A DNA stretch of 64,000 bases from Candidatus Latescibacterota bacterium (GTDB taxonomy: Bacteria; Latescibacterota; UBA2968; GCA-2709665): the NCBI GenBank assembly GCA_965198095.1, contig OZ240239.1, positions 118,641 to 182,640 on the forward strand, written 5' to 3'. Positions within the stretch are counted from its first letter, which is position 1; the number at the start of each line of letters is the position of its first letter. The position numbers and the translations under genes were made by a program. Below, piece by piece: positions 17,518 to 61,191 of the stretch. The notes beneath the pieces are model-generated. The model worked only from the letters and a program-made list of their open reading frames with translations. It ran no database searches and was not told where the DNA came from.

Positions 17518-17630
17518 CGGTCTCTCCTTTGCTTTTCGTTTTTCTCAATCTTCTCTGCGACCTCTGCGCCTCGGATCACAATCCTTTGGGGGCAGGCGGT
17601 GATTCTTGGTTCTTGATTTTCCCGATCCCC

Positions 17631-17659
17631 GGTACCCGTGTTTTGCTTTCCCGGTACCC
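17631..17659. repeat. GGTACC-box copy 2 (GGTACCCGTGTTTTGCTTTCCCGGTACCC)
   Basis: Lies 42 nt after the stop at 17702 and 114 nt before the start at 17517. Confidence 0.8.
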
Positions 17660-17701
17660 GGATTTCCATTCCGCAATCCCAAATTCGCAATCCGCAATTG
17701 G

Positions 17702-19306: not shown

Positions 19307-19530
19307 CTAAAGCGCCGCGTAGTCTGGATACAGCTTTCTCAGTTTGATCCGAGCATCGTTTGTCGTGAACCGCCAATGGACAGCCTTGCTTTTGTTGTTG
19401 CGATCGTTCGACCAGGCGGAAGTCTGCTCTTTGAGTCGTACGGCCGCTGATAGACGTCCAAGACATCCTCTATAGCGGCGACAAACGCGGCGTTCTGCTT
19501 GGGCGGAATCACCCAGCACGTTCTCAGGTG
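19307..19530 (-). pseudogene. IS630-family transposase remnant with the catalytic core deleted
   Basis: One frame reads WVIPPKQNAAFVAAIEDVLDVYQRPYDSK, a mid-protein IS630 motif. The adjacent frame reads ...NDRNNKSKAVHWRFTTNDARIKLRKLYPD, the IS630 C-terminus. The DDE domain that should separate them is missing. Confidence 0.6.
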
Positions 19531-19538
19531 AGCTTACG

Positions 19539-19639
19539 TTCGCCAGCAGGAGCTGGCTCCTACCTTATGAACGGCTTGTGAATATTACCTGATTCCAAAC
19601 GCCGGTAAATCCGGTAGGAGCCGCCTCCCGGCGGCGAAC
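19539..19639. repeat. REPIN (inverted REP doublet), stems GCCAGC/GCTGGC and GCCGCC/GGCGGC
   Basis: TTCGCCAGCAGGAGCTGGCTCCTACC ...46 nt... CCGGTAGGAGCCGCCTCCCGGCGGCGAAC. Same unit as the array at 42353-42967. Confidence 0.85.
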
Positions 19640-19703
19640 ACTTCACCCCGATACTCTCAACCGACGGCCTAGAGCACCCGGATACTTGAGGCTTGGTGCT
19701 GTG

Positions 19704-21534: not shown

Positions 21535-21615
21535 TTCGCCGTCCGGAGACGGCTTTCGGTTGACAGAGACGGCCGCCGTGATCGGATTCGTCGCCGTCTG
21601 GAGACGGATCCTACC
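21535..21615. repeat. Two REP-like hairpins with stem GCCGTC/GACGG(C) in direct orientation
   Basis: TTCGCCGTCCGGAGACGGC (21535-21553) and TCGCCGTCTGGAGACGGATCCTACC (21591-21615). Confidence 0.6.
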
Positions 21616-21722
21616 ATATGAATAGACGTCTGAAACGGTTCAACAACGAACCCACGGTACTCCTGTTCTGATTCCCGGGTGCTCGCCTTCACGATCCACG
21701 AACAACGGTTTTTACGATCCCC

Positions 21723-21751
21723 GGTACCCGTGTTTTGCTTTCCCGGTACCC
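21723..21751. repeat. GGTACC-box copy 4
   Basis: GGTACCCGTGTTTTGCTTTCCCGGTACCC, 17 nt after the stop at 21769. Preceded by CACGATCCACGAACAACGGTTTTTACGATCC. Confidence 0.8.
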
Positions 21752-21768
21752 GAACTAAGCCCTGCTTC

Positions 21769-33403: not shown

Positions 33404-34238
33404 GGCTTCGCCAACAGAGTTGGCGATTGGATTGGCGCACCCTAAGTCGCCGTCTGTGGCTTCGCCAACAGAGTTGGCCATAGGATTGGCACATCTTAAA
33501 TCGCAATCTGTGGCTTCGCCAACAGAGTTGGCGATTGGATTCGTGCACCCTAAATCGCAATCTGTGGCTTCGCCAACAGAGTTGGCTCCTACCGGATTTG
33601 GGACGTTATGACATCGGTGAATCCAATAGGCCCAATAATCCGGTAGGAGCCGTCTCCCGACGGCGAACCATCTGATCGCAGTGTGGTGCCTCTGCTGAAC
33701 CTATGGGTGGCGATTGGATTCGTGCACCCTACGTCGCCGTCTGTGGCTTCGCCAACAGAGTTGGCTCCTACCGGATTCGGGACGTTTTGATATCGGTGAA
33801 TTCAATTCACCGGAAAATACGGTAGGAGCCGTCTCCCGACGGCGAACCATCTGATCGCGGTGTGGTGCCTCTGCTGAACCTATGGGTGGCGATTGGATTG
33901 GCGCACCCTAAGTCGCCGTCCATGGCTTCGCCAACAGAGTTGGCAATTGGATTGGCGCACCCTAAGTCGCCGTCCATGGCTTCGCCAACAGAGTTGGCTC
34001 CTACCGGATTCGGGACGTTTTGATATCGGTGAATTCAATTCACCGGAAAATACGGTAGGAGCCGTCTCCCGACGGCGAACCATCTGATCGCGGTGTGCGC
34101 CTCTGCTGAACCTATGGGTGGCCATAGGATTGGCGCACCCTAAATCGCAATCTGTGGCTTCGCCAACAGAGTTGGCCATGGGATTGGCGCACCCTAAATC
34201 GCAATCTGTGGCTTCGCCAACAGAGTTGGCTCCTACCG
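33404..34238. repeat. Hierarchical repeat array: 9 copies of a 54-nt sub-repeat interleaved with 3.5 REPINs (stems GCCAAC/GTTGGC and GCCGTC/GACGGC)
   Basis: TTCGCCAACAGAGTTGGC occurs at 33407, 33461, 33515, 33569, 33748, 33927, 33981, 34159 and 34213. Full 100-nt REPINs are at 33569-33668, 33748-33847 and 33981-34080. A half REPIN is at 34213-34238. Confidence 0.9.
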
Positions 34239-34341
34239 GATTTGTGGCGTTATGACATTGGCGCTACGGAGCGCAAAATACGTGCCGCCAGCAGCTCGGC
34301 TGCCCGCGGCGTTGCGCGCTTCTTCGTGTCACTCCGCGATA

Positions 34342-40839: not shown

Positions 40840-41604
40840 CTACGCCTCGTCCACGATGGCCACGACTCTCGCGAGCGAACCGTCACCCATCCAGTAACGG
40901 ATCGGAAAGGCGGCGATCGTGACCCGCATCCCGGTCACCTCGTCGATATCTCCGCCCACGTTCTCGATCAGGCCGATGCCGTTCATCAGCATCTTGTTGT
41001 GGGCATACTCCTGAGAAGGGTGCTCCGGCGGGTCGAACTGTTTCGGAAAATCGTCCAACAGCTCCCGTCCCGTCACTTTCTTGTACTTGTCATACACCCA
41101 CGGCGTGCGGTCCGGACCCTTCGTGCACAAGAAGATATCGTTCGCCTGCGTGTCGTGGCCGACACATTTGACACCCTTCTCGACGAACCAGTCCGCGGCC
41201 TCTTTCCACATCCCCGGAGAGAACTGAAAGTATTTCGTGTTGTTTCCCCAGTACTGGTGCCAGCCCGTGTTGATGATGACGATGTCGTCCTTCTGGATCT
41301 CCGGCCTGGCGTGCTCGAGATCCTCGGCCGTGATCAGTTCCCAATCGTTCTTTGGAATGCTCACCACGACGCCTGTCCCATAGTATGTATCCAGCGGAAC
41401 CTCGTCCATGTCGCACCCGTTCTCGTTCACGTGAATCGGAGCGTCCACGTGGGTGCCCACGTGCATGGAGTGTTTGATCATCGTCGTCGTCTGGCCGTTA
41501 TGCTGGGGCATGGAGATCCGCTCGATGATGAGGTCGGGGCTGCCCGGCCAGACCGGCATGCCAAAACCGAACGGGTGCGACAGGTCAACCAGTCGTCTCG
41601 GCAT
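40840..41604 (-). CDS. Cyclase-family protein (kynurenine-formamidase-like)
   Basis: 254 aa with LSHPF...MPVWPG and HVGTHVDAPIH. AAGGAGGG lies 9 nt upstream. Confidence 0.85.
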   Translation of the reverse strand: MPRRLVDLSHPFGFGMPVWPGSPDLIIERISMPQHNGQTTTMIKHSMHVGTHVDAPIHVNENGCDMDEVPLDTYYGTGVVVSIPKNDWELITAEDLEHARPEIQKDDIVIINTGWHQYWGNNTKYFQFSPGMWKEAADWFVEKGVKCVGHDTQANDIFLCTKGPDRTPWVYDKYKKVTGRELLDDFPKQFDPPEHPSQEYAHNKMLMNGIGLIENVGGDIDEVTGMRVTIAAFPIRYWMGDGSLARVVAIVDEA

Positions 41605-41654
41605 CTTGATACGCCCTCCTTGTCCTGAAAGTCCGTCCGCCCATCGCGCTGAGA

Positions 41655-41805
41655 CAAGCCCGGCAAATCCGGTAGGAGCCTTACCTTCGCCAGCAGGAGC
41701 TGGCTCCTACCTTATGAACGGCTTGTGAGTATTACCTGATTGCAAGCCCGGTGAATCCGGTAGGAGCCGCCTCCCGGCGGCGATCCATTCACGCCGATAC
41801 TCGCC
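41655..41805. repeat. REPIN unit preceded by a truncated half unit, flanking the RAYT 3' side
   Basis: CAAGCCCGGCAAATCCGGTAGGAGCC is joined directly to TTACCTTCGCCAGCAGGAGCTGGCTCCTACC ... CCGGTAGGAGCCGCCTCCCGGCGGCGA. Relative to array units, 37 nt carrying one hairpin are missing at a GCC microhomology. Confidence 0.85.
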
Positions 41806-41888
41806 TTGCTTGATCTTACCAATCCGGGAAAAGACACGAGAACGGCCAATCTTCTGGGGTTGCAACATATCTTTTTCTCACCGGATTT

Positions 41889-42323
41889 TCATGGATGTAT
41901 CCGATTTTCATGGATGTATCCGAGATGTCGAGCAAACGCCTCTTTGTTACGAAGCTTATGATCATAGAACCCGCGCTGCCAGAACCTTCCCGTCCTGCAT
42001 TGTAGTCTGTTGATTCCTCTAGCTGTATGGCTTCCGAATGAAGCCATCACGCTGGAAAGATCCTGATCCTCTCCCAAGGCCACGATCAAATGCAAGTGAT
42101 CAGGCATCAGGACGTATCCTTCACATCTGAGACGCTCATTTTCATGAAGCCAGCGCAAACACCGAACGATGAGCTCCGGCACTTCAGATTCCTCTTTCGG
42201 ATTCATTGGGTCGCGAACCAGTGGACCTGTAGTATCGTCCACGCACTTTGTTATGGAGTAGATGGATCCGGGCAAGGAATTACGCCATTTCCTCAGAGCC
42301 GATTGATGGAACCCTCTTTCCAT
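41889..42323 (-). mobile_element. REP-associated tyrosine transposase (RAYT / TnpA_REP, IS200/IS605-type Y1 HUH family) with a frameshifted 3' end
   Basis: 144 aa. HUH motif YVLMPDHLHLIV and RFWQRGFYDH. The catalytic-Tyr motif GYIHEN is followed by a premature stop. Removing one copy of the 19-bp duplication (41884-41921) extends the frame to TAA at 41816, giving ...YIHENPVRKRYVATPEDWPFSCLFPDW. Visibly lower GC than the neighbouring genes. Confidence 0.85.
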
Positions 42324-42352
42324 TTTTTTACACGTATCAACCGACGGCCGAG

Positions 42353-42967
42353 CTTACCTTCGCCAGCAGGAGCTGGCTCCTACCTGATGAACGGCCTGTG
42401 AGTATTGCCTGATTGCAAGCCCGGTGAATCCGGTAGGAGCCGCCTCCCGGCGGCGAACACTTCACCTCGATCCTCGCCTTACCTTCGCCAGCAGGAGCTG
42501 GCTCCTACCTTTTGAACGGCTTGTGAGTATTGCCTGATTGCAAGCCCGGTAAATCCGGTAAGAGCCGCCTCCCGGCGGCGAACACTTCACCTCGATCCTC
42601 GCCTTACCTTCGCCAGCAGGAGCTGGCTCCTACCTCATGAACGGCTTGTGAGTATTACCTGATTTTTCAAACCCGGTAAATCCGGTAGGAGCCGCCTCCC
42701 GGCGGCGAACACTTCACCTTGATCCTCGCCTTACCTTCGCCAGCAGGAGCTGGCTCCTACCTCATGAACAGCTTGTGAGTATTACCTGATTTCAAACCCG
42801 GTAAATCCGGTAAGAGCCGCCTCCCGGCGGCGAACACTTCACCTCGATCCTCGCCTTACCTTCGCCAGCAGGAGCTGGCTCCTACCTCATGAACAGCTTG
42901 TGAGTATTACCTGATTGCAAGCCCGGTAAATCCGGTAGGAGCCGCCTCCCGGCGGCGAACACTTCAC
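42353..42967. repeat. Tandem array of five REPIN units (period 125-127 nt)
   Basis: Units start at 42353, 42478, 42603, 42730 and 42855. Each unit is TTCGCCAGCAGGAGCTGGCTCCTACC + 47-nt spacer + GGTA(G/A)GAGCCGCCTCCCGGCGGCGAAC + linker. The array starts 29 nt upstream of the RAYT ATG. Confidence 0.95.
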
Positions 42968-43186
42968 TTCGCAGAAAGCAAGTATTGGGTGTGCCGTTTT
43001 GTCGTCAAAAGCCGATCGGAGACTAAGTTGTTGAATTTCACGCACCTGAAGCGAGTCTCGTCGCGGGTGTGGATCGATCTGCAAAAACCGGTCTGGGAAG
43101 ATAGGTAGGTAGGGCTTGAACGCTAAAACGTTCTTGGAGGAAGGAGACAGGATCGGTCGGCTGGCGCGCCCACTCTTGCCTCAAGG

Positions 43187-44212
43187 TCAACTCGTGTCGA
43201 TCCGCTCCGCCATCTCCGACATCGTCTGCGCATCCACGGACCGACGGTGCAGGATCGTCTCGAGATTGCCCATATGATCCGAGTGTTCGGGAACCGCCTC
43301 CAGCGCTTCACGAACCTCTTCCCAGGTACATCCGATCTGCCGGGGCTTGTAGCGGGTGCCGCAGGCCTTGAGCATCTCCACGGCCTTCTCGAAGTGCGTC
43401 TCGCAGAGATGACAGGTGATCAGCGTCCCAAGGGCGACGATCTCGCCGTGCAGCGGTTGCTGACCGTGCACCCAGTAAAAGGCGGGGTCCATGGGATGAT
43501 CGATGCTGTGATTCACGTTCTGCTTCATCACCGGGAGGTCCCACCGCTCCCGGCTGATCTCCGCGCAGGTCCGAATGGCCGGGGGTCCGGGCCTTCCCTC
43601 GACGTCCAGATCGGAGGCGTAGCGTTCCACGCGCTCCGATATCCAGGTCTCTATCTCTTCCTGTGCGGCCGTATTCCAAGAATCGCCCGGCAGTCCCTGA
43701 TCCGTCCACCACTTCCAGGCGGCCGCTGCGGCCAGGAAGCAGACGCACTCGCCCATGCCGGCCGCGTTGAGGTAGGGCGGCGCGGCCCAGATCACGTCGG
43801 TGTCCAACAGCACACACTCGGGCACCAGCGTATCTATAATCGCGAGCTTGCCGTCCCGCCGAAGCGGATATGTCAGCTGAAAAATGGCACCGGTCGACAC
43901 GACGGTCGGGATCTGGATGAGCCTGGCCTTCTTCTTCAGGGCGACGTATTTGGCGGCGTCCAGGGCCCTCCCGCCTCCAATTCCGAGGACGTGGGACGTC
44001 TTCGGAAGTTTCTTCACGAGGTCGTTGGAATAGCCTTCCTCCTGGCTGGTCACATATGCCAGGCCCTTGGGCTCGCCCGGCAGCTTTTCCCGAACTGCCT
44101 CCCAGGCCGAGGGCGAGGTCAAAACGACATAACCCTTGAGATCCCGGCATCCGTCCTCGATCACGCGCGTTCCGTAATGGGTAACCCAATCTTTCAATGG
44201 TTTCGTGGCCAT
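43187..44212 (-). CDS. Iron-containing alcohol dehydrogenase / glycerol-1-phosphate dehydrogenase-like (DHQS-like superfamily)
   Basis: 341 aa with GIGGGRALDAAKYVA and IPTVVSTGAIF, followed by a His-rich metal region. Confidence 0.6.
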   Translation of the reverse strand: MATKPLKDWVTHYGTRVIEDGCRDLKGYVVLTSPSAWEAVREKLPGEPKGLAYVTSQEEGYSNDLVKKLPKTSHVLGIGGGRALDAAKYVALKKKARLIQIPTVVSTGAIFQLTYPLRRDGKLAIIDTLVPECVLLDTDVIWAAPPYLNAAGMGECVCFLAAAAAWKWWTDQGLPGDSWNTAAQEEIETWISERVERYASDLDVEGRPGPPAIRTCAEISRERWDLPVMKQNVNHSIDHPMDPAFYWVHGQQPLHGEIVALGTLITCHLCETHFEKAVEMLKACGTRYKPRQIGCTWEEVREALEAVPEHSDHMGNLETILHRRSVDAQTMSEMAERIDTS

Positions 44213-44408: not shown

Positions 44409-46340
44409 CTACGAAGCACTCACCCACGTCAGAAAGGGTGAGGCGCCGCGATTTCCCCACGCATAGAAAGGGATCGCCGTCACCGGCGCGGCGGTCCCAC
44501 CCTCCCCGCGAAGGACAACGGTCTGGCCCAGGAGGCCTTCCTCCAGGTCGGTTTCGAACCCGGGCAGTTCCCCCACAGGCGCGTAGAGCCCCTCCCCTTG
44601 TCTTGAACGCGCCCCTGTCCCAACACAGATCTCCCACAGGTCGAGACCGGGATTGTCCGCCCCTTCGAAGCAGTAGACGAGGGGCCCCCGCATCAAGGCC
44701 AGTCTGCGTCGCAGGACCTTCACTCGGGGATCCGCCTGTACGCCGACGACCGGCATCGGCAGGTCCAGAATCACGCGGTCTCCCGGGCTCCACTCTCTGT
44801 GGATTCGGCAGTAGGATCCAGGTTCGACCCCACTGACAGCTGTACCGTTGACTTCAACCTTTGGGTTCGAACACCAACCGGGGATGCGCAGGTTCAGATC
44901 GAAGCTCGCGGGTTTCTGGGAAGAAACCTCGAGCTCTACGAGGCCCTCCCACGGATACTGCGTCTTTTGCGAAAGGGCGATCTCCGTACCATCCGGCAGG
45001 TGCCAATCTACGCGGCTGTTGTCGTAGAGGTGGACCCAGAAGCCACTTTCGGACGTGCTATAGATATAGCCGGGAACCGACGCGATCGTACAAAGCACGT
45101 TCGGGGGACAACAGCTGGGCGACAGAGACGCCCAGGTCGTTCTCGGAGGATGATCCCCGAGTGAAGCCAGGGGCACGAGGTAGGAGAAAGTGGTGTGGTC
45201 CAGCGAGACACCCGCCAGGATCCCGTTGTAGAGAATCCGCTCGAAAAGATCGGCATACACCGCCTCACCCGTCACGGCGAGCATCCGCCAGTTCCAGTAG
45301 GCGTTGCCGATCGTCGCGCAGGTCTCCATCCCGGTCGACCCGGTCCAGCCCCATACCCCCTGGGACAGGTCGAAGGCCTCTTCAACTGCCACTTCGGCTT
45401 CCCCGCGTTTGACCGCGATCGATCCAACAATATGCATCTTCCTCTTGGTGACGTCGTTCCAGATCGCGTCCAGCTTGTCCAGGTAGGCCTTATTTCCGGT
45501 TTCCGCGAAGGAGTCCGCGCCGCCGCACATCAGATAGGTCTGGCGAACGAGGTGTGCGGAACGACGGACGCCTACATTCGACCCGATCGCGACGCTCGGA
45601 CCGATTACGGGCGGCTGTCTGAGCAGAGGCGTCAGGAAATGCTCGGCGCCGCGCAGGTAGCGTTCATCGCCGGTCGAACGATACAACTCTACGAGCGCCA
45701 TCTCTATGGCGGGGTGCCCCGCGAACTCCTCGCCTCCGAATTTCGCGCAGACCCGGTCCGCAACGCCCATCGCGCATTCCAGGAATTTATCTTCACCGGT
45801 CGCGCGATGGTGGGCGATGGCCGTCTGGATCAGGTGGCCCGGAGTTGCGAGCCCATACGAGAGCTCGAAATTCTCGCCATAATAGATGTTGAAAAAATCT
45901 TCATTCTGATGTGCCGCGACGAAACCGGCCGCAAGGTCGTTGACCAGACCGCGGATCTCATCATCCTCACCCGACTGAAGCACGAACGCGCACGCTTCCA
46001 GCCACTTCGTCGCGTTCGCGCGCCATGTGTAGGACAGTCCGAGTTTGTTCTGGCCTCTATAGTTCTTGTCCAGAATCTCGAGGGCGGCCCCAATTTCCGG
46101 ACCGTCCGTAGACTGGGAGAATGTCCGGAACGGGCTGATCTGATCGTCCCTGTCGAGCCAGGAGAGGAAGGCCGGAATGCCCGCCCTGCGGCTGGCCTCC
46201 ATTCGCGGCCGCCAGAATCCCGCCTCCATCGTAACGGCCTGAATCGGGACCGGTCTTAGAATGGCGTGGGGGCTCTGAACGGTGGAAACGACGCCCGCCT
46301 CGTTCCAAGCCGGGAGGGTCTTACCTTCCTTGGTACTCAC
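44409..46340 (-). CDS. Glycoside hydrolase family 127 (beta-L-arabinofuranosidase-like, DUF1680)
   Basis: 643 aa with METCATIG (Glu-x-Cys) and SPSCCPPNV (Cys-Cys), matching the GH127 Zn and nucleophile motifs. Confidence 0.8.
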   Translation of the reverse strand: MSTKEGKTLPAWNEAGVVSTVQSPHAILRPVPIQAVTMEAGFWRPRMEASRRAGIPAFLSWLDRDDQISPFRTFSQSTDGPEIGAALEILDKNYRGQNKLGLSYTWRANATKWLEACAFVLQSGEDDEIRGLVNDLAAGFVAAHQNEDFFNIYYGENFELSYGLATPGHLIQTAIAHHRATGEDKFLECAMGVADRVCAKFGGEEFAGHPAIEMALVELYRSTGDERYLRGAEHFLTPLLRQPPVIGPSVAIGSNVGVRRSAHLVRQTYLMCGGADSFAETGNKAYLDKLDAIWNDVTKRKMHIVGSIAVKRGEAEVAVEEAFDLSQGVWGWTGSTGMETCATIGNAYWNWRMLAVTGEAVYADLFERILYNGILAGVSLDHTTFSYLVPLASLGDHPPRTTWASLSPSCCPPNVLCTIASVPGYIYSTSESGFWVHLYDNSRVDWHLPDGTEIALSQKTQYPWEGLVELEVSSQKPASFDLNLRIPGWCSNPKVEVNGTAVSGVEPGSYCRIHREWSPGDRVILDLPMPVVGVQADPRVKVLRRRLALMRGPLVYCFEGADNPGLDLWEICVGTGARSRQGEGLYAPVGELPGFETDLEEGLLGQTVVLRGEGGTAAPVTAIPFYAWGNRGASPFLTWVSAS

Positions 46341-46358
46341 TGGGTGACCTCCCCGACG

Positions 46359-47240
46359 TTATACCGGCATTGTGCGTTTGGTGTGGGCCCGCCCGATCTT
46401 GGCAGGCACTTCTCCCGCAGGCCCACAGGAGCCGATCATCAGGCCCTCGTCGATCATTTCAACCACGGTGTCCGGGAATACAAGATCGAGGAAAAAGACG
46501 TGCGCCTCCTGAAGGGCCGCCTTCACACGCTGGCGGGCCTGCGAGACCGCTTCGGGATAAGGAGGGTCGTGAGCGTCGGGATAACCGAACGACATCGCCA
46601 TGTCGCCGGCGCCCCACTCCCCACAGATGATGCCAGGCACCTTCGCAATCGACTCTGCGTTTTCCAGGGCACGTCTGTTTTCGATCTTGATTCCGAGCAT
46701 GATCTCGCCCACGGGATTCAGCGGCCAGACATCGGCCCGCTTCAAGTATTCCTGGACAGGAAGGCCCCACACTTCCGACGCGGATGCCTGCCCCTTATGA
46801 CCCCTGCGACCGGGATCCAGACCCTGTCCTACACCGAGCTGCTGGAAGGAGTAACGGCAGGATTCGACGAAGGCCTTGACGGCCTCCGGCGTTTCGGCAT
46901 GGGGCAGCGCGACGCCGTGGACCCCCTGCGCGAGGACCTGTTTGATCATCCAGGCGTTCGCCCGGACCACGGCTTCGCTCGTGCCGTCCGTCGGAATGGT
47001 CACGGACACGGCCGGCGTCCGGTGCCCGCTCCGGGTCGGACCGCCATCCACCAGGCCACGCATGAACTCGCCGATGGCGTGGACATCGAACGGATCGTGT
47101 TCCGTCTCGATCCTGATGTAGTCGGCCCACGTACCGGCCATCTCCCGGCCGGCTTCGTAAGAAACCTCCTGTGGATCGATATAGTAAATCGGCTGCCCCT
47201 GCTCGAGCAGTTCGATCGCCCTGTTGATCCGTTTCGGCAT
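46359..47240 (-). CDS. HpcH/HpaI aldolase / citrate-lyase-beta family
   Basis: 293 aa with DYIRIETEHDPFD and the (beta/alpha)8 aldolase pattern. Confidence 0.65.
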   Translation of the reverse strand: MPKRINRAIELLEQGQPIYYIDPQEVSYEAGREMAGTWADYIRIETEHDPFDVHAIGEFMRGLVDGGPTRSGHRTPAVSVTIPTDGTSEAVVRANAWMIKQVLAQGVHGVALPHAETPEAVKAFVESCRYSFQQLGVGQGLDPGRRGHKGQASASEVWGLPVQEYLKRADVWPLNPVGEIMLGIKIENRRALENAESIAKVPGIICGEWGAGDMAMSFGYPDAHDPPYPEAVSQARQRVKAALQEAHVFFLDLVFPDTVVEMIDEGLMIGSCGPAGEVPAKIGRAHTKRTMPV

Positions 47241-61051: not shown

Positions 61052-61084
61052 ACGACTCTAATTTTCTTATCACCAGAGTAACAA

Positions 61085-61157
61085 TCGCCGCCGGGAGGCG
61101 GCTCCTACCGGATCAATGAGTGCGATGTATCTGGTAGGAGCCAACTCCCGTTGGCGA
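61085..61157. repeat. Short-spacer REPIN with mixed stems (GCCGCC/GGCGGC and GCCAAC/GTTGGC)
   Basis: TCGCCGCCGGGAGGCGGCTCCTACC ...23 nt... GGTAGGAGCCAACTCCCGTTGGCGA. Confidence 0.85.
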
Positions 61158-61191
61158 CGAAATGACTCACGGTGATTGCATACGGTTTTCC

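Follow-up and report, generated by a model that had tools for sequence, protein, structure and literature searches.

The 64-kb stretch of bacterial DNA analysed here as a whole (the window) carries a gene for a REP-associated tyrosine transposase (RAYT), here called RAYT-1, which lies between copies of a repetitive extragenic palindrome (REP). The locus is interpreted with high confidence as a 'REPtron', in which a fixed, vertically inherited HUH/Y1 transposase gene is bracketed by its cognate REPs, with a tandem array that would be driven by recombination or slippage and an enzyme that is probably dead in this strain. The window is a new host for a known system, and neither the mechanism nor the kind of element is new. 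The locus consists of the following features.

41655..41680, plus strand: truncated repeat unit, made of the 3' part of the spacer and the first 10 nt of the REP head (GGTAGGAGCC) and fused to the next unit; a head match without a hairpin.
41681..41815, plus strand: complete downstream unit with REPs at 41686-41711 (minus) and 41759-41784 (plus), a 47-nt spacer and a tail reaching the ancestral stop.
41816..42323, minus strand: RAYT-1, a frameshifted RAYT gene, assigned by Pfam, NCBIfam, a match to 4ER8, invariant residues and intact copies in relatives.
41884..41923, no strand: perfect 19-bp tandem duplication, GATTTTCATGGATGTATCC, 2.1 copies, found with Tandem Repeats Finder (TRF).
42324..42352, minus strand: leader of 29 nt that separates the ATG from the array, holding the 13-mer TCAACCGACGGCC (42337-42349).
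42353..42971, plus strand: tandem array, 4.9 units, each 125-127 nt long (TRF).
42981..43008, minus strand: promoter-like match TTGACG-16-AATACT, which lies upstream of the array and is directed at RAYT-1; a pattern match only.

The open reading frame (ORF) at the centre of the locus is confirmed as an ordinary RAYT. On the minus strand, 41889-42323 encodes 144 aa with the motifs PDHLHLIV and LGYIHEN, and the ancestral C-terminus lies in a different frame, ending at the stop 41816-41818. An earlier note on this DNA had recognised the HUH (DHLHLIV) and catalytic tyrosine (GYIHEN) motifs of a Y1 transposase and had proposed profile searches with the 144-aa and the repaired product, and these searches bore the assignment out. 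The Y1_Tnp model of Pfam scored 33 bits against the ORF (cutoff 23), and the curated RAYT equivalog of NCBIfam (NF047646, REP_Tyr_transpos, cutoff 80) scored 87 bits with the sequence as it is and 115 bits after repair. The IS200/IS605 equivalog NF033573 remained at 21 bits, below its cutoff of 55. The only solved structure with a good sequence match was 4ER8, the TnpA-REP of Escherichia coli (E 1.7e-11). In the sequence alignment Y136 of RAYT-1 corresponds to the catalytic Y115 of 4ER8 and the segment NPV...DWPFS is conserved. For structure comparison, the AlphaFold model of an orthologue, P0001 (80% identical to RAYT-1), was used as a stand-in for the protein of the window (mean predicted local distance difference test score, pLDDT, 86). 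Foldseek placed 4er8_A first (E 1.9e-8, TM 0.66, 22% identity over the structural alignment), followed by the IS200, ISDra2 and IS608 transposases. H76, H78, W115, Y136, N140 and P141 are invariant across 22-25 aligned homologues. The family is large at a loose threshold (14,293 cluster representatives at E <=0.001) and small at a strict one (19 at E <=1e-30), and the two nearest database homologues of RAYT-1 are each 162 aa long. The REP architecture suggests that RAYT-1 may belong to group 3. The gene is present once within the window and is, as had been noticed before, richer in A+T than its surroundings: G+C is 47-50% across the ORF versus 60-66% in the flanks, and G+C at third codon positions (GC3) is 0.51 versus 0.78-0.82 in the adjoining genes.

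The arrangement described by the earlier note, a RAYT between its own inverted REP doublets with a five-unit array starting 29 nt upstream of the ATG, also held. REPs sit on both sides, and those nearest the gene are oriented > gene <, with their heads outward. The array begins 29 nt from the RAYT-1 ATG (42323), and about 1.5 units lie downstream of the gene. Over 42353-42971 TRF reported a period of 125, 4.9 copies and 95% matches, and a period of 252 nt was equally good. The proposed unit of two inverted REPs around a 47-nt spacer was found again, with measured spacers of 47-49 nt: in each array unit two REPs form a tail-to-tail doublet whose GTAG heads point inward and to which a common tail of about 25 nt is added, the order being the REP TTCGCCAGCAGGAGCTGGCTCCTACC, the spacer and then the inverted GGTAGGAGCCGCCTCCCGGCGGCGAA. 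These two REPs are inverted copies of one motif, and their stems differ, yet each is internally complementary. Along the array the heads alternate between GGTAGGA and GGTAAGA, and REPs of the GCCAGC and GCCGCC types alternate with gaps of 47 nt and 26 nt over the 4.9 units, as in a tandem bacterial interspersed mosaic element (BIME). The units had further been said to end about 10 nt from the ancestral stop; the non-palindromic tail comes within a few nucleotides of it, whereas the REP hairpin ends 31 nt away.

Folding of the doublet as one long hairpin of the REPIN type was not supported. The minimum free energy structure of the single-stranded doublet consists, on both strands, of two separate 6-bp hairpins (Z-scores -2.1 and -1.6). 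The two REPs mismatch at 5 of 26 positions, and because their stems differ the doublet arms are only 81% complementary. The label 'REPIN' used before is thus appropriate for the layout (two inverted REPs, a short spacer, a repeated unit) but not for a long-hairpin fold, and the doublet is more like the BIME of E. coli, with its two REP types, than a strict Pseudomonas REPIN.

The REP itself spans 26 nt and is built as GGTAG-GA-(6-bp stem)-TCCY tetraloop-(stem)-GAA, which in search form reads GGTAGGAGCNNNNN-loop-NNNNNGCGA. The window contains its head, GGTAGGAGCCNNC, 25 times, where 1.2 matches are expected, and none of 100 shuffles contained as many. All but one of these matches (24/25) carry a hairpin with complementary stem, the exception being the remnant at 41655-41680. 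The earlier description of a GTAG-tagged REP is supported by the layout and by compensatory changes among four stem variants in the window. Head matches were found at five intergenic places, namely at 19.5 kb, 21.6 kb, 33.4-34.2 kb, the RAYT-1 locus and 61.1 kb. Three loci have doublets with spacers of 47-49 nt, and at a fourth the doublet has a spacer of 23 nt. Away from RAYT-1 the REPs are:

19534..19669, plus strand: dispersed doublet (stems GCCAGC and GCCGCC), followed by TCAACCGACGGCC; it has nearly the whole 125-nt unit in common with the array.
21590..21615, minus strand: single degenerate REP, GGTAGGATCC, with a stem of the GCCGTC type, intergenic.
33404..34242, no strand: second REP array, more complex than that at RAYT-1, whose stems are GCCAAC and GCCGTC, with additional 54-nt sub-repeats.
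61084..61158, no strand: dispersed tail-to-tail doublet with a 23-nt spacer and the stems GCCGCC and GCCAAC, intergenic.

Just two copies of the 13-mer TCAACCGACGGCC are present, at 19657-19669 on the 3' side of the dispersed doublet and at 42337-42349 on the 5' side of array unit 1, near the start of RAYT-1. This permuted placement is explained equally well by a circular intermediate and by a copy, shifted in phase, of an older array, in a comparison of two copies.

Insight into how the locus changes was obtained from six related contigs (L001-L006), defined as those encoding the identical neighbouring cyclase. All sequences compared are metagenome assemblies, and some contig names give a low coverage (3x, 10x, 11x). 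Identity to the window is 99.5-99.8% on the cyclase side and about 99-100% beside the locus on the other side. The following states were observed.

Window: 5 units upstream; RAYT-1 frameshifted by the 19-bp duplication.
L004: 5 units upstream; RAYT-1 intact.
L001 and L006: 3 units upstream; RAYT-1 intact.
L005: about 3.5 units upstream; RAYT-1 intact.
L003: about 3.5 units upstream, the first with a truncated REP; RAYT-1 split by an insertion sequence (IS).
L002: a single doublet; RAYT-1 absent.

In L002 one outer flank is that of the array and the other that of the downstream unit. Judged from the sequences, this state is a gene deletion through recombination between direct doublets, and a deletion rather than an ancestral absence, because a more distant species has the gene at the same site. 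The IS in L003 (3780-5420) is about 1.6 kb long, encodes a DDE_3 transposase, has terminal inverted repeats of roughly 100 nt and lies within RAYT-1 at a CTAG site.

The 19-bp duplication shifts the RAYT-1 frame directly after N140 (...GYIHEN), that is, past the catalytic tyrosine motif. Removal of one copy of the 19-mer restores an ORF of 162 aa ending at 41816-41818, and L001, L004, L005 and L006 encode a 162-aa protein identical to this repaired RAYT-1. The 'ancestral stop' postulated at 41816 is thus real, as the intact 162-aa alleles stop there. The 19-mer is single-copy in all related contigs with the gene (L001, L003-L006) and missing from the gene-less L002. Through the frameshift the protein lacks P141, which is invariant, and its conserved C-terminal segment NPV...DWPFS, and the truncation point corresponds to residue 119 of E. 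coli TnpA-REP. In that enzyme, removal of 21 or 34 C-terminal residues severely impaired binding and cleavage (PMC8266576), and the cut in RAYT-1 sits further in than either deletion. Since P141 and the conserved segment are lost, the allele of this strain is most likely inactive, judging by its sequence and by analogy to the E. coli protein. The earlier note had considered the locus as the source of the REPs scattered across the window. This idea needs qualification, as a probably inactive gene would be no current source, and as different stems (GCCAAC, GCCGTC) are found in the REPs at 33.4-34.2 kb and 21.6 kb, stems which are tied to a second RAYT in relatives. Intact RAYT-1 was not called as a gene in L001, L004, L005 and L006, where it lies between the genes for an iron-containing alcohol dehydrogenase (Fe-ADH) and the cyclase, and it is missing from the protein collection; its atypical codon usage (GC3 0.51 versus about 0.8) is a likely reason.

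This second gene, RAYT-2, encodes 161 aa (55% identical to RAYT-1, 99 bits with NF047646) and was found in L146, L147 and L148, of which L146 comes from the same 4.29-Mb contig as L004. The stretch that holds it (L146 3775-5702) is the counterpart of the second array of the window (33404-34242), about 7 kb from RAYT-1. RAYT-2 is flanked by REPs with a GCCAAC stem (TCT loop) and a GCCGTC stem (TCCC loop), and the 54-nt sub-repeats at the site bear a headless hairpin. The 1004-nt gap in the window equals the start plus the end of the 1929-nt gap in L146, which indicates that RAYT-2 was deleted between repeats. By these comparisons this strain has lost the two RAYTs that its relatives show. RAYT-2 ends in TGG TAG (L146 4900-4940), and this final codon with its stop falls within the GGTAG head of the REP downstream; RAYT-1 and its relatives all end in P-D/N-W-stop, written TGGTAA.

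From these data and from TnpA-REP of E. coli, Stenotrophomonas and Marinomonas, a sequence of events can be proposed. By analogy, an intact enzyme would bind the folded REP hairpin and the GTAG head on single-stranded DNA, would use Tyr136, held in place by the metal site His76-x-His78, to cut close by, and would rejoin the strands, now and then copying or moving REP doublets. Growth and shrinkage of the array would most likely come about when direct repeats recombine unequally or replication slips between them, and insertion of each unit by the enzyme is considered less likely. With RAYT-1 disabled and RAYT-2 deleted, the REPs of the window would probably be immobile relics.

Recombination is supported by an array copy number of 3, about 3.5 or 5 among contigs that are 99.5-100% identical nearby. 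A small set of shared variants recurs among the units in mosaic fashion, and in L001 and L004 the amplified units carry a REP head mutated to GTAA. Mutations of the fourth position of GTAG abolish cleavage in the systems tested (PMC8266576), which argues that amplification does not require an enzyme-competent REP. Outside the arrays, three related contigs with about 99.3% identity have both the 19.5-kb doublet and the 21.6-kb REP without any change, and no insertion or excision polymorphism of single doublets was seen in these three; only the RAYT-adjacent arrays vary. The presence or absence of units in relatives, suggested earlier as a check, was found as variation of array copy number (3 to 5) and not for the dispersed REPs. 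In the sister species no REP lies beside the orthologous gene of the 19.5-kb site, and the region is rearranged by IS, with no clean empty site. A deletion of 16 nt was observed in L153 (4970-4990, compared with about 19515-19530 of the window), directly next to where the 19.5-kb doublet ends (…CGTAAGCT|GGGTGATT…).

Some observations weigh against the interpretation favoured here. The 19.5-kb doublet is identical in all four genomes compared and gives no direct sign of recent movement, the 19-bp duplication is present in the assembly of this window only, and the array unit covers almost the full extent of the dispersed copy, which fits enzymatic head-to-tail insertion or rolling-circle-type copying too. 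The last point leads to an alternative that appears unlikely, namely that the transposase built the array by repeated insertion beside an existing REP or by HUH-primed, rolling-circle-like copying. The unit is almost exactly the sequence in common with the 19.5-kb copy, with near-complete elements head to tail. Placement of TCAACCGACGGCC 3' of that copy and 5' of unit 1 is reminiscent of a circular permutation, arrays adjoin both RAYT genes, and the 3'-OH left by HUH enzymes can prime replication (PMC8266576). However, a phase-shifted copy of any tandem array also appears circularly permuted, and the units amplified in L001 and L004 are precisely those with the GTAA head. The shuffling of variants among units is what unequal exchange predicts, and partial units as well as a gene deletion between direct repeats show that recombination takes place. 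Tandem REPIN clusters including flanking sequence have also been attributed to a second, non-transpositional mechanism (PMC3116915).

The frameshift and the differences in copy number could also be artefacts of assembling repeats from metagenomes, which is rather improbable. All sequences are of this kind, some at 3x, 10x or 11x, and exact look-ups of the 144-aa ORF and of the Fe-ADH protein found neither on record, so that the 19-bp duplication is seen in one assembly without a second witness. Consensus errors, however, do not typically take the form of a perfect 19-bp duplication, the contigs from several samples show distinct internal variant patterns and not simple collapses, and an IS insertion with long terminal inverted repeats as well as a clean deletion are structured events.

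That RAYT-1 is fixed and inherited vertically, as proposed above, is indicated by a sister species. A chromosome of 5.66 Mb with the label Candidatus Latescibacterota, OZ252100.1, encodes the orthologue P0001, and the Fe-ADH and cyclase genes are its neighbours there as well. An FCB-type (Fibrobacteres-Chlorobi-Bacteroidetes) host had been suspected earlier, which agrees with the label of this closest genome and with the shared synteny. Upstream of the orthologue lies a REP doublet, and on its downstream side three single REPs follow head to tail (L124 8497-8640) with a period of 58 nt, an arrangement said to be rare for GTAG REPs. Contigs of the TARA ocean collection carry a 77%-identical gene with the same REP arrangement. 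Between RAYT-1 and P0001 the ratio of nonsynonymous to synonymous substitutions (dN/dS) is 0.15 with a dS of 0.74, the dS of the cyclase being 0.59; other parts of the window have about 74-89% DNA identity to OZ252100.1, which makes a Latescibacterota host the most likely one. In both species GC3 of RAYT-1 is about 0.51 and that of the neighbours 0.77-0.82, and low G+C is therefore regarded as a stable trait of an old resident gene and not as a mark of recent arrival. On these comparisons RAYT-1 is old, vertically inherited and syntenic across species. The idea that RAYT-1 is an ordinary autonomous IS200/IS605 element, with the flanking palindromes as its ends and no dispersed REP population, can draw on the common Y1_Tnp domain, on a G+C content under that of the host, as a recent arrival might show, and on the Foldseek matches to IS200, ISDra2 and IS608 transposases, but is practically dismissed by the IS200 equivalog score of 21 bits (cutoff 55) with the RAYT model passed, the single copy in the window, an identical syntenic position in a species whose DNA differs by about 15%, with a dS near that of the neighbour and an unchanged GC3, the recurrence of the palindromes without a gene at four other intergenic sites, and the lack of a tnpB gene.

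The REP is not confined to the window. In the sister species REPs are dispersed across 1.5-5.0 Mb of the chromosome (OZ252100.1), and a search for GGTAGGAGCCNNCTCNNGNNGGCGA with one genome per species returned at least 115 stretches. Among the matches listed, record titles name Brocadiaceae/Scalindua, other Planctomycetota, Nitrospirota, Nitrospinota and Latescibacterota, and furthermore Victivallales, Omnitrophota, Desantisbacteria, and gamma- and deltaproteobacteria, so that the REP core occurs in genomes labelled with at least 8 phyla. Within loci fetched from many phyla, 152 of 159 pattern matches have complementary variable triplets. With the 8-nt head as the sole anchor, a perfect stem was present in 65 of 129 distinct 26-mers, representing 22 stem types; 77% of cells were paired versus 58.6% after shuffling, and 160 cells carried double changes versus 53. 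None of 500 shuffles matched either value, and slid registers were all far lower. A metagenome-assembled genome of Planctomycetota (L095) contains a 50%-identical RAYT with same-core doublets on both flanks, head to head. A metagenome scan with a species-specific 36-mer gave no match, and a second metagenome scan yielded 18 contigs, all of other organisms and none of this one. Another short repeat family, with a unit of about TTTTACATCCCCGGTACCCGTG and a 22-nt period, was observed in the window at 17615-17661 and 21647-21752 and on the sister chromosome (L081 2638-2745).

In the surroundings of RAYT-1, the scan for promoter patterns found 2 sites versus 0.9 expected, and no terminator-like sites were detected in 41500-43300. 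Rfam gave no match at gathering thresholds, and ARAGORN found no tRNA. The RAYT-1 locus was also considered as a recombination breakpoint and rejected as such, because the divergence on the ADH side is confined to a gene for a glycoside hydrolase of family GH127, at least 1.5 kb away. This gene (44409-46340, divergent over 44800-46600) has 75-86% identity in L002, L004 and L005, and partly in L006, which looks like allelic replacement by recombination when the sequences are compared.

Several known systems resemble the locus. REPs of the Pseudomonas/Xanthomonas type, which are GTAG-1/GTAG-2 REPs of group 3 RAYTs, are alike in the GT(A/G)G head, the GA, the short perfect palindrome and the 3-nt tail (PMC2817692, PMC3733652), and the Pent2 REP of P. 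entomophila, GTAGGAGCCAGCTTGCTGGCGAA (Table 1, PMC2817692), differs from GTAGGAGCCAGCTCCTGCTGGCGAA of the window in the loop only. Tail-to-tail doublets are common in this family, several paralogous RAYTs can coexist, each with its own REP flavour, and in P. fluorescens SBW25 tandem REPIN clusters including flanking sequence adjoin RAYT genes (PMC3116915). The window differs from this type by its likely Latescibacterota host, the TCCY tetraloop and the lack of a predicted long doublet hairpin. TnpA-REP of E. coli provides the best sequence and fold match among solved structures, with HUH, catalytic tyrosine and NPV...DWPFS aligned, and its BIMEs likewise contain two REP types, inverted in each doublet and tandemly reiterated. 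Its REPs, however, are longer, with a bulged stem and the GTAG directly at the stem, and the protein has 50 residues past the catalytic tyrosine, whereas the 162-aa RAYT-1 has 26. The REPtron Mb of Marinomonas sp. MWYL1 (group 3; PMC8266576) shares a REP-flanked gene and a perfect palindrome, of 5 bp, with a 4-nt loop and 2 bases from GTAG, but has other stem and loop sequences, and CT/CA cleavage sites are known for Mb. IS200/IS605 elements (IS608, ISDra2) have the HUH/Y1 fold and recognise DNA hairpins with a 5' guide tetranucleotide (PMC8266576); they are multi-copy, autonomous and move with their gene, in contrast to RAYT-1, which is single, syntenic and below the IS200 cutoff.

The literature places these features in a broader frame. 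Nunvar et al. (2010) described the GA between head and palindrome as particular to RAYTs of Pseudomonas and Xanthomonas (PMC2817692). Di Nocera et al. (2013) defined GTAG-1 and GTAG-2 by the GA spacer and a 3-nt motif on the far side, found GTAG REPs in Proteobacteria, Cyanobacteria, Chloroflexi and the PVC (Planctomycetes-Verrucomicrobia-Chlamydiae) group, and reported tail-to-tail doublets and tandem clusters including flanking DNA (PMC3733652). Bertels and Rainey (2011) observed tandem REPIN clusters, one beside each of three RAYT genes of P. fluorescens SBW25 (PMC3116915). Later, Bertels et al. (2017) found RAYTs in 24% of species with mostly vertical inheritance (PMC5581495), and Corneloup et al. 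(2021) presented the Marinomonas 'REPtron' with its 5-bp palindrome two bases from GTAG (PMC8266576). The earlier note had regarded such systems as mostly proteobacterial; the FCB-type host stands, but RAYTs and REPs outside the proteobacteria as well as tandem clusters next to RAYT genes had already been described (PMC3116915, PMC3733652, PMC5581495).

A more far-reaching possibility is put forward tentatively and is rather doubtful at present. One REP-RAYT lineage, of the GTAG-GA type once described as unique to Pseudomonas/Xanthomonas RAYTs, might have kept a nearly invariant 25-nt core over at least 8 phylum-level groups, among them anammox Planctomycetota, Nitrospirota, Nitrospinota and Latescibacterota, while the transposase diverged to about 50% identity, and the system might here be caught in the course of being lost, with two RAYTs hit by four independent lesions (the 19-bp duplication, the IS and two deletions) among contigs of about 99.3-99.8% identity, the arrays changing and the dispersed doublets staying fixed. 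If true, this would amount to a natural experiment on the question whether benefit to the host is what keeps RAYTs in place.

The window extends RAYTs with REP/BIME arrays to an uncultured FCB phylum, and the Pseudomonas-type REP core is far more widespread than stated in the first descriptions. The near-identical contigs with intact, frameshifted, IS-disrupted and deleted alleles and with differing array sizes form a small field data set on how fast such loci change and how RAYTs are lost.

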